Sequence record: NC_010105.1
DNA from: Escherichia phage JS98
Strand: one strand, 5' to 3'
DNA length: 64,000 bases
This document shows, in pieces, positions 8,260-8,842 of this stretch (positions are counted from its first letter, which is position 1; the number at the start of each line of letters is the position of its first letter). A program made the translations under genes and the position numbers. Below the pieces are notes generated by a model. The model saw nothing but the letters and a program-made list of their open reading frames with translations, did no database searches and was not told the origin of the DNA.

Positions 8260-8553
8260 TTATTTTGTAATTTCTTTGATTTTAGAAACTACTTTATCTT
8301 TGGTAAGACCGGAAAAAGTCTTATATTTTGTAAAGTGGATATCATCACCAAGATTAATATAATATTTCTTTTTAACCGTATTGAATGCTATACTAACAGG
8401 TTTACCATTTACTGTAATAGTAATTTGCTGAGCCTTATCAACATCACCTGAGCCAAAGGCTCTTTTAATATCGCTACTAATATCGGCCATAGCCGCTTTG
8501 TTAATGGAATACAAATCTGTCGATTCTTTGATAAATTCTTGATAAGTTTTCAT
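8260..8553 (-). CDS. internal head protein candidate with capsid-targeting leader (97 aa)
   Basis: N-terminus MKTYQEFIKE is nearly identical to the T4 IP leader MKTYQEFIAE, with an I-x-E cleavage site. Confidence 0.7.
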   Translation of the reverse strand: MKTYQEFIKESTDLYSINKAAMADISSDIKRAFGSGDVDKAQQITITVNGKPVSIAFNTVKKKYYINLGDDIHFTKYKTFSGLTKDKVVSKIKEITK

Positions 8554-8592
8554 TTTTTGTTTCCGTTAGGTTGGGTTTGTTTTGATAGGGCT

Positions 8593-8620
8593 ATAGTATC
8601 ATGCCTATAGACCTTGTAAA
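8593..8620 (-). promoter_or_regulatory. T4-type early promoter (same cassette family)
   Basis: Minus strand GTTTACA-16 nt-TACTAT, then AGCCCTATCAAAACAAA. Confidence 0.65.
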
Positions 8621-8632
8621 CATCTTTTTAAA

Positions 8633-8842
8633 TTATTTTAACCATGAAGAATTTTCAGAGACCCAGCTATCTATATCTGATTGAGGGCCGAAGAAGTAGG
8701 CAACCCCATTAGATAACTCTCCCGAAAGCCAATTTATGCCTTTCAGGCTTTCTTTAAATTCTTCAGGAGTACAAGAAACCTCTATTGCCACCGAAGAGGC
8801 TGACTCCATTGCTTCTGTTAAAAATTCTTTGTATGATTTCAC
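8633..8842 (-). CDS. internal head protein candidate at the ipI locus (69 aa, GTG start)
   Basis: N-terminus (M)KSYKEFLTE is CTS-like. GTGA overlap with the 57B stop. Occupies the T4 ipI position directly downstream of 57B. Confidence 0.6.

Follow-up and report, generated by a model that had tools for sequence, protein, structure and literature searches.

What fills the space between gene 57B (acb1) and trna.4 in Escherichia phage JS98, at the locus where phage T4 carries ipI, the gene for internal protein I (IPI, or Ip1), and what might its products do? The question is raised by two short open reading frames (ORFs) on the minus strand of a 64,000 nt stretch of sequence record NC_010105.1, referred to here as the window. 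They encode precursors of 97 and 69 amino acids (aa), termed ORF97 and ORF69, and an earlier reading of the sequence (the original prediction) had taken them to be two novel capsid-targeted, injected proteins. The window is that of a Dhakavirus, a T4-like coliphage; over bases 8000–9300 it shares 99.2 % identity with phage MN04 and 98.4 % with JS10. ORF97 and ORF69 are probably members of the T4-type internal protein class in this JS10/MN04-like Dhakavirus, injected and likely directed against restriction or another first-line defence. The two ORFs and their leaders are as follows, with an arrow at each predicted cleavage site.

8260–8553, minus strand: ORF97, ATG start, 97 aa precursor MKTYQEFIKE↓STDL..., predicted mature part of 87 aa; phrog_27873
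8524–8553, minus strand: ORF97 leader, codons 1–10, with an I-K-E↓S site; 9 of 10 residues identical to MKTYQEFIAE of T4 IPII and IPIII
8633–8842, minus strand: ORF69, GTG start, 69 aa precursor (M)KSYKEFLTE↓AMES..., predicted mature part of 59 aa; phrog_23867 (E=1.8e-42)
8813–8842, minus strand: ORF69 leader, codons 1–10, a predicted capsid-targeting sequence with an L-T-E↓A site, from the family alignment and the parallel with gp23

Both N-termini (MKTYQEFIKE and (M)KSYKEFLTE) fit the pattern MK[TS][YF]xEF[ILMV]xE, and all of their residues lie within the variation of T4 IPI–III and Ip6–9. A six-frame scan of the 64 kb for the leader pattern returned three ORFs anchored at a start codon, namely ORF97, ORF69 and a 205 aa protein described at the end, and none in 100 shuffles. 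The scan and the list of ORFs thus agree with the original prediction that two ORFs with internal-protein-type leaders lie here. The same prediction had given the leader MKTYQEFIAE to all three T4 internal proteins, which is right for IPII and IPIII; that of T4 IPI is MKTFKEFTSTTTPVSTITE↓A, 19 aa in length. Among six members of the ORF69 family, 65–97 % identical to the window protein, leader residues M1, K2, E6, F7 and E10 and the following A11 are invariant.

Each leader terminates, as had been claimed, in the gp21-type motif (L/I)-x-E, and the two site types match those of the capsid proteins of the phage itself. The L-T-E↓A of ORF69 is identical to the aligned maturation site of gp23, and the I-K-E↓S of ORF97 is paralleled by gp24, the N-terminus of which reads MAKINELLRE↓S at its aligned maturation site. 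The protease is encoded in the window, as is the scaffold protein gp22.

38725–39360, plus strand: prohead protease gp21, expected to cleave off the leaders; Pfam Peptidase_S77 (E=1e-103)
40228–41787, plus strand: gp23 major capsid protein, in which SFLTE↓AEIGG (residues 59–68) aligns with the T4 maturation site

By their pattern of sequence conservation, ORF69 and ORF97 are both conserved protein-coding genes. Existing annotation would leave room for the view that one or both are chance or decaying reading frames: the RefSeq and GenBank entries of JS10 (NC_012741) have a 650 bp gap without annotation (2962–3611) that contains both, the MN04 record annotates ORF97 alone, as hypothetical, and several further records omit ORF69 or label it hypothetical. 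ORF69 also starts with GTG. Against this view stand full-length conservation of the two ORFs (27 and 9 phage records), PHROG families of their own, good Shine-Dalgarno sequences, a confident fold prediction for ORF69 and low ratios of non-synonymous to synonymous substitution rates (dN/dS). The ratio is 0.05–0.09 for ORF69 (0.08 for the window against IME08, 0.05 against EcS1) and 0.17 for the ORF97 family (PEi20 against CC31). The GTG start is genuine, since homologues in IME08, WG01, CF1, EcS1 and two uncultivated viral genomes (UViGs) have ATG at the same codon. The substitution ratios and the conservation effectively refute the chance-frame reading, which is highly improbable.

The gene order on the minus strand is gene 1, 57A, 57B, ORF69, ORF97, trna.4, trna.3, trna.2.

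9517–10278, minus strand: gene 1
9294–9524, minus strand: 57A; Pfam GP57 (1e-28)
8839–9294, minus strand: 57B (acb1), a 151 aa 2H phosphodiesterase directed against the cyclic oligonucleotide-based antiphage signalling system (CBASS); Pfam Acb1 (E=8.4e-59), phrog_755
8005–8202, minus strand: homologue of trna.4, the conserved downstream border of the locus; phrog_1692, JS10 and T4 annotation

The T4 order is 57B, ipI, trna.4, and both ORFs of the window fall between 57B and trna.4; they sit in the polymorphic ipI locus beside acb1. In sister dhakaviruses the slot after 57B holds ORF69, an Ip8-like gene, Ip9 and Ip7 (WG01), ORF69, an Ip8-like gene and Ip9 (IME08), or Ip8 and Ip9 (QL01). The comparison of the locus across T4-like genomes that had been proposed as a check thus shows cassettes swapped among close dhakaviruses and involves two internal protein (Ip) loci. 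It bears out the suggested fit with the known polymorphism of this locus, which has been recognized since 1994. More than 30 Ip variants at two loci, flanked by early promoters with stem loops, have been described (PMC2839356).

The position of ipI itself can be assigned more closely from the promoter modules and repeats around ORF97.

8554–8632, minus strand: early-promoter/stem-loop module upstream of ORF97, TTTACA-16-TACTAT with TG; from promoter scan, T4 alignment and fold
8203–8259, minus strand: second such module, upstream of trna.4; from promoter scan, repeat, T4 alignment and fold
8576–8602 and 8210–8236: 27 nt perfect direct repeat (100 % identity, spacing 366 nt), one copy in each module, bracketing ORF97

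In the module upstream of ORF97 the stem loop spans the −10 element, and the ribosome-binding site is weak (GGA). T4 ipI begins 73 nt past 57B and has a copy of an early-promoter module, GTTTACA-N17-TGATACTAT, on either side. The window modules align with those flanking T4 ipI, and a stem loop over the −10 can form in all four. Because it has its own promoter cassette like that around T4 ipI, ORF97 is the strict positional counterpart of ipI. The original prediction had placed ORF69 exactly at the ipI position, and this assignment has to be moved to ORF97. ORF69 lacks a module of its own and is coupled to 57B instead; it represents an extra gene, inserted after 57B and ahead of the promoter module of ORF97. 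The predicted translational coupling was confirmed: the GTG of ORF69 overlaps the TGA stop of 57B as GTGA, with a GAGGA Shine-Dalgarno sequence 6 nt upstream. The promoter/stem-loop arrangement at Ip loci goes back to Repoila (1994) and is discussed as a shuffling device by Arbiol (2010; PMC2839356). The window resembles such promoter early stem-loop (PeSL) elements in that repeated T4-early-promoter modules bracket ORF97, with the stem loop over the −10, and differs from them at ORF69, which has no module and is translationally joined to acb1.

ORF97 is rare. Among 50,697 phage records, 100 % identical copies occur only in JS10 and MN04; distant relatives (33–38 % identity) are found in Edwardsiella phages PEi20 and PEi26, phage CC31 and Yersinia phage MHG19. 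In a set of 5.8 billion proteins it falls into a single cluster, and an exhaustive HMMER search of 1.8 billion representatives returned just the same protein, the MHG19-type homologue and two repeat proteins. Matches to Ig/PKD domains and NHL beta-propellers were judged to be compositional beta-strand matches and not homology. In PEi20, CC31 and one UViG the relatives have leaders (MKTYNEFINE↓A, MKTYNEFMFE↓A) and lie between e and denV, the slot of T4 ipII/ipIII. The family is thus present at both classical Ip loci, as would be predicted by cassette shuffling between them. The MHG19 protein (2453–2752 of that genome) begins LKQQQQIKILENKMNP..., lacks a leader and is located near topoisomerase and motA genes, outside both Ip loci. 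The ORF97 domain is therefore not a capsid protein by nature, which fits an effector that was given a delivery tag.

Mature ORF97 has an isoelectric point (pI) of 9.6 and a net charge of about +5.5. Structure prediction of the mature domains, also proposed as a check, gave mixed results: the model of ORF69 is confident (predicted local distance difference test score, pLDDT, 83), and the single-sequence model of ORF97, helix–four strands–helix, is poor (pLDDT 59.5). YkuJ was rejected as a fold neighbour of ORF97, since this best PDB match (E about 1e-2) was obtained with a low-confidence model and is not trustworthy.

ORF69 is wider in range, with at least five lineages. Identity is 97–99 % in 19 dhakavirus records and drops to 76 % for EcS1, 72 % for the homologue of Erwinia phage Gravdalen and 53–56 % for those of the Citrobacter phages CF1, Merlin and Ursula; the gene is also present in two viral genomes from metagenomes. 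It is coupled to acb1 in all examined genomes but one, with a 4 nt overlap in Dhakavirus, EcS1 and the two UViGs, where it is the sole gene between 57B and trna.4. The exception is CF1, in which the homologue is placed between two annotated internal proteins and not beside acb1. Between the window and IME08 there are nine synonymous and three non-synonymous changes, all three of the latter within the leader. Dhakaviruses do not differ in the mature part of ORF69, despite a synonymous divergence (dS) of about 0.24, and amino acid differences are confined to the leader (V/M1, S/T3, K/N5). Such confinement would fit recombination or gene conversion between the leader-coding segments of neighbouring Ip cassettes. 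Additionally, Met12 (codon at 8807–8809, minus strand) is invariant throughout the family and stands just past the predicted cut (E10↓A11-M12-E13). It could be a second start yielding a leaderless isoform, or merely a structural residue.

Mature ORF69 has a pI of 4.1 and a net charge of about −6. Its AlphaFold model shows a strand–helix–strand–strand–helix core behind an N-terminal leader helix. Against the PDB the model found generic alpha/beta folds only (E of at least 0.1) and no meaningful neighbour; in a Foldseek search of BFVD it found the Merlin homologue, a 78 aa protein without a name, at E=7e-5 and VR7 Ip6 at E=1.8e-3 (template modelling score 0.70). When the ORF69 and Ip6 alignments were compared with hhalign, the probability was 91 % as long as the leader was included and 20 % (pairwise E=1e-3) after its removal, in the same register both times and with a common GP..I..W motif. 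An hmmscan of mature ORF69 against phrog_8111 (Ip6) gave no match. A distant relationship of ORF69 to Ip6 is possible.

Comparison with known internal proteins places the two ORFs within the class without giving either a close counterpart. In T-even phages these are diverse proteins with the capsid-targeting sequence as their sole common part (PMC3012670). T4 IPI shares with both ORFs the locus between 57B and trna.4, a similar size and an N-terminal targeting leader ending in (L/I)-x-E, and with ORF97 a cassette whose own early-promoter/stem-loop module is repeated on both sides. It differs in its leader (19 aa, against 10 in ORF97 and ORF69) and in its family (phrog_4363, against phrog_27873 and phrog_23867). 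The alignment with T4 IPI in BLASTP was limited to residues 1–22, and IPI* was absent from the PDB sequence and fold matches of both ORFs, the ORF97 model being of low confidence. The statement that the mature parts do not resemble T4 IPI therefore stands. With IPII and IPIII, ORF97 shares its leader, and its relatives in CC31 and PEi20 lie in the ipII/ipIII slot, while ORF97 itself is at the ipI locus; mature ORF97 is also close to IPII* in size (87 against 90 aa) and charge (+5.5 against +5.0), but PHROG and PDB searches revealed no homology between the mature domains. The Ip7, Ip8 and Ip9 cassettes of IME08, WG01, QL01 and AnYang resemble ORF97 in slot, in leader type and in being interchangeable between close relatives, and are unrelated to it in mature sequence. 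Ip6 of T6/VR7-type phages (phrog_8111) resembles ORF69 in its strand–helix–hairpin–helix order, its GP..I..W motif and its ipI locus; it is about neutral whereas ORF69 is acidic, and the profile match drops once the leader is removed, so that homology is possible and not established.

The proposed course of events follows T4. The leader would dock each precursor in the scaffolding core of the prohead; cleavage after Glu10 by gp21 would leave a basic 87 aa ORF97* and an acidic 59 aa ORF69*, packed with the DNA. The mature proteins would enter the cell with the genome and could act before any phage transcription. By analogy with T4, it is fairly likely that both proteins are packaged, processed and injected. 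In this scheme the ipI slot would hold ORF97 as a mobile cassette between the repeated early-promoter/stem-loop modules, and ORF69 would be a separate gene translationally coupled to acb1. The likeliest function would be to block a GmrSD-like type IV restriction enzyme or another first-line defence that recognizes the modified cytosine DNA of the phage.

An anti-restriction role is proposed because each of the T4 proteins Ip1, Ip2 and Ip3 blocks one GmrSD variant. IPI* blocks GmrSD (PMC3012670), and Silas et al. (2025; PMC12373910) found that Ip2 and Ip3 inhibit different GmrSD variants, one each, without cross-protection, the targets of Ip1–3 being distinct. IPIII stripped of its targeting sequence still works in the cytoplasm (Srikant et al.), and a host-specific plating defect of the IPIII knock-out was overcome by making the leaderless mature protein in the host. 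JS98-type phages have a gene 42 homologue and no glucosyltransferases (PMC2993671). According to a 2026 study, RB69 makes arabinosylated 5-hydroxycytosine, and a 5-hydroxycytosine pathway is inferred in Dhakaviruses from synteny (PMC13326640); the natural targets would thus be nucleases recognizing that modification. That the two proteins inhibit type IV restriction specifically is a tentative suggestion, with somewhat less than an even chance of being right.

Several observations weigh against the assignment of the two ORFs as injected anti-defence proteins. Ip4–10 gave no reproducible GmrSD inhibition in the sole screen to date (PMC12373910), so that a type IV target is not guaranteed. To judge from the sequence searches, no protein of known function matches either mature domain: in Pfam, NCBIfam, PHROGs and PDB sequences the only hits were their own function-unknown families, phrog_27873 for ORF97 and phrog_23867 for ORF69. 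The leaderless MHG19 relative means that the ORF97 domain can work without packaging, and mature ORF69 is the sole acidic one among twelve mature Ip-type proteins compared, the rest being neutral to basic. No virion proteomics of dhakaviruses, EcS1, relatives or homologues was found in the literature to support the predicted packaging and cleavage. Additionally, no perfect late promoter TATAAATA is present near ORF69 or ORF97; the nearest copy on the same strand is at 12254–12261, and the sole late-promoter-like site nearby is a one-mismatch TATAAAGA at 8883–8876. T4 ipI, which encodes a proven virion protein, is likewise without a proximal late promoter, and given this like arrangement the missing promoter is not counted against packaging.

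Two other accounts of these proteins bear on the same evidence. They might be packaged and yet serve mainly as structural or DNA-condensing core components, in charge neutralization or scaffolding, and not as anti-defence effectors. Mature ORF97 is small and basic like T4 IPII*, and about 1000 internal protein molecules are embedded in the DNA of T4 heads (PMC3012670), both of which would suit such a role. Yet close relatives vary greatly at this locus and can do without it, and this pattern, with cassettes swapped among dhakaviruses, is more in keeping with an arms race than with a structural requirement; the basic T4 proteins Ip2 and Ip3 are specific GmrSD inhibitors (PMC12373910), and mature ORF69 is acidic. 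A mainly structural role is unlikely.

The other account concerns ORF69 alone, which might go unpackaged, its leader being a relic of cassette recombination and its product an early cytoplasmic protein made with Acb1, for example a partner or a second counter-defence factor. The acb1 coupling, the position as sole gene of the slot in the two UViGs, the acidity, the lack of a promoter module and a possible internal start at Met12 would all agree with this, and the ORF97 family shows that such domains exist without a leader. A relic would be expected to decay, however, and the leader is under selection across genera, with its key positions invariant although the mature parts fall to about 53 % identity. 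Moreover, the CF1 copy lies away from acb1, and ORF69 comes out nearest to Ip6, an annotated internal protein, both by fold in BFVD and by full-length profiles. A purely cytoplasmic ORF69 is accordingly rather doubtful, and packaging with injection is preferred for both proteins. A bolder version of the latter would make ORF69 a new, widely conserved type of injected effector, a strongly acidic 59 aa protein always co-made with Acb1, loaded into the capsid and aimed at a target other than GmrSD. It would act at the moment of DNA entry, for instance by mimicking DNA towards another restriction or sensing system, or by assisting counter-defence as a helper delivered in advance, and Met12 could additionally give a leaderless cytoplasmic isoform. 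This is speculative and on balance improbable.

As to novelty, the internal protein class has long been known and its members are routinely recognized by their signal sequence; the two new families are assignable to it. The term 'novel' in the original prediction was too strong, since both families can already be found, as hypothetical proteins, in public genomes and in PHROGs. In all, what it said of the two ORFs, their leaders, locus and IPI-unlike mature parts has been upheld, and its claims of novelty, of the IPI leader and of the ipI slot for ORF69 have been revised. Neither family is labelled as an internal protein in the annotations examined or in PHROGs, and the supplements of Silas et al. 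cover ip4–10 only, with neither the ORF69 nor the ORF97 leader string present. What is new is the occurrence of the ORF97 family at both Ip loci in different genera, with a leaderless relative, and of ORF69 as an unusually acidic, acb1-coupled member in several genera. All three T4 internal proteins are specific inhibitors of different GmrSD enzymes, and most other Ip variants have no known target. Injected proteins of dhakaviruses would be natural probes for host nucleases that recognize their DNA modification, for which ORF97 (rare, basic and mobile between Ip loci) and ORF69 (acidic and acb1-coupled) are concrete and cheaply testable candidates. The gains are an improved annotation of therapeutic T4-like phages and two entries for anti-defence screens, and no new principle is involved.

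The third ORF found by the leader scan is preceded by a perfect late promoter.

4731–5348, minus strand: 205 aa leader-bearing protein, MKTYNEFLNE↓S, with TATAAATA at 5377–5384

Its likeness to T4 IPIII is confined to the leader. The middle of the protein is rich in Pro, Ala and Lys, and it belongs to phrog_2280, of unknown function.

Elsewhere in the window, the genes for gp24-like vertex proteins form a tandem pair of paralogues (42204–43484 and 43485–44768, plus strand). The second starts MKKINALIQE↓S, and the 10-residue N-termini of both close with (L/I)-x-E↓S. Finally, five small paralogous ORFs (74, 69, 65, 93 and 96 aa) stand in tandem at 1048–2290 on the minus strand; four match phrog_899 and one phrog_4882, both of unknown function. 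All have Trp-x-Ser-Ser near the C-terminus and a terminal Cys, four ending in W-x-S-S-S-x-x-C and the fifth in WYPSSC.

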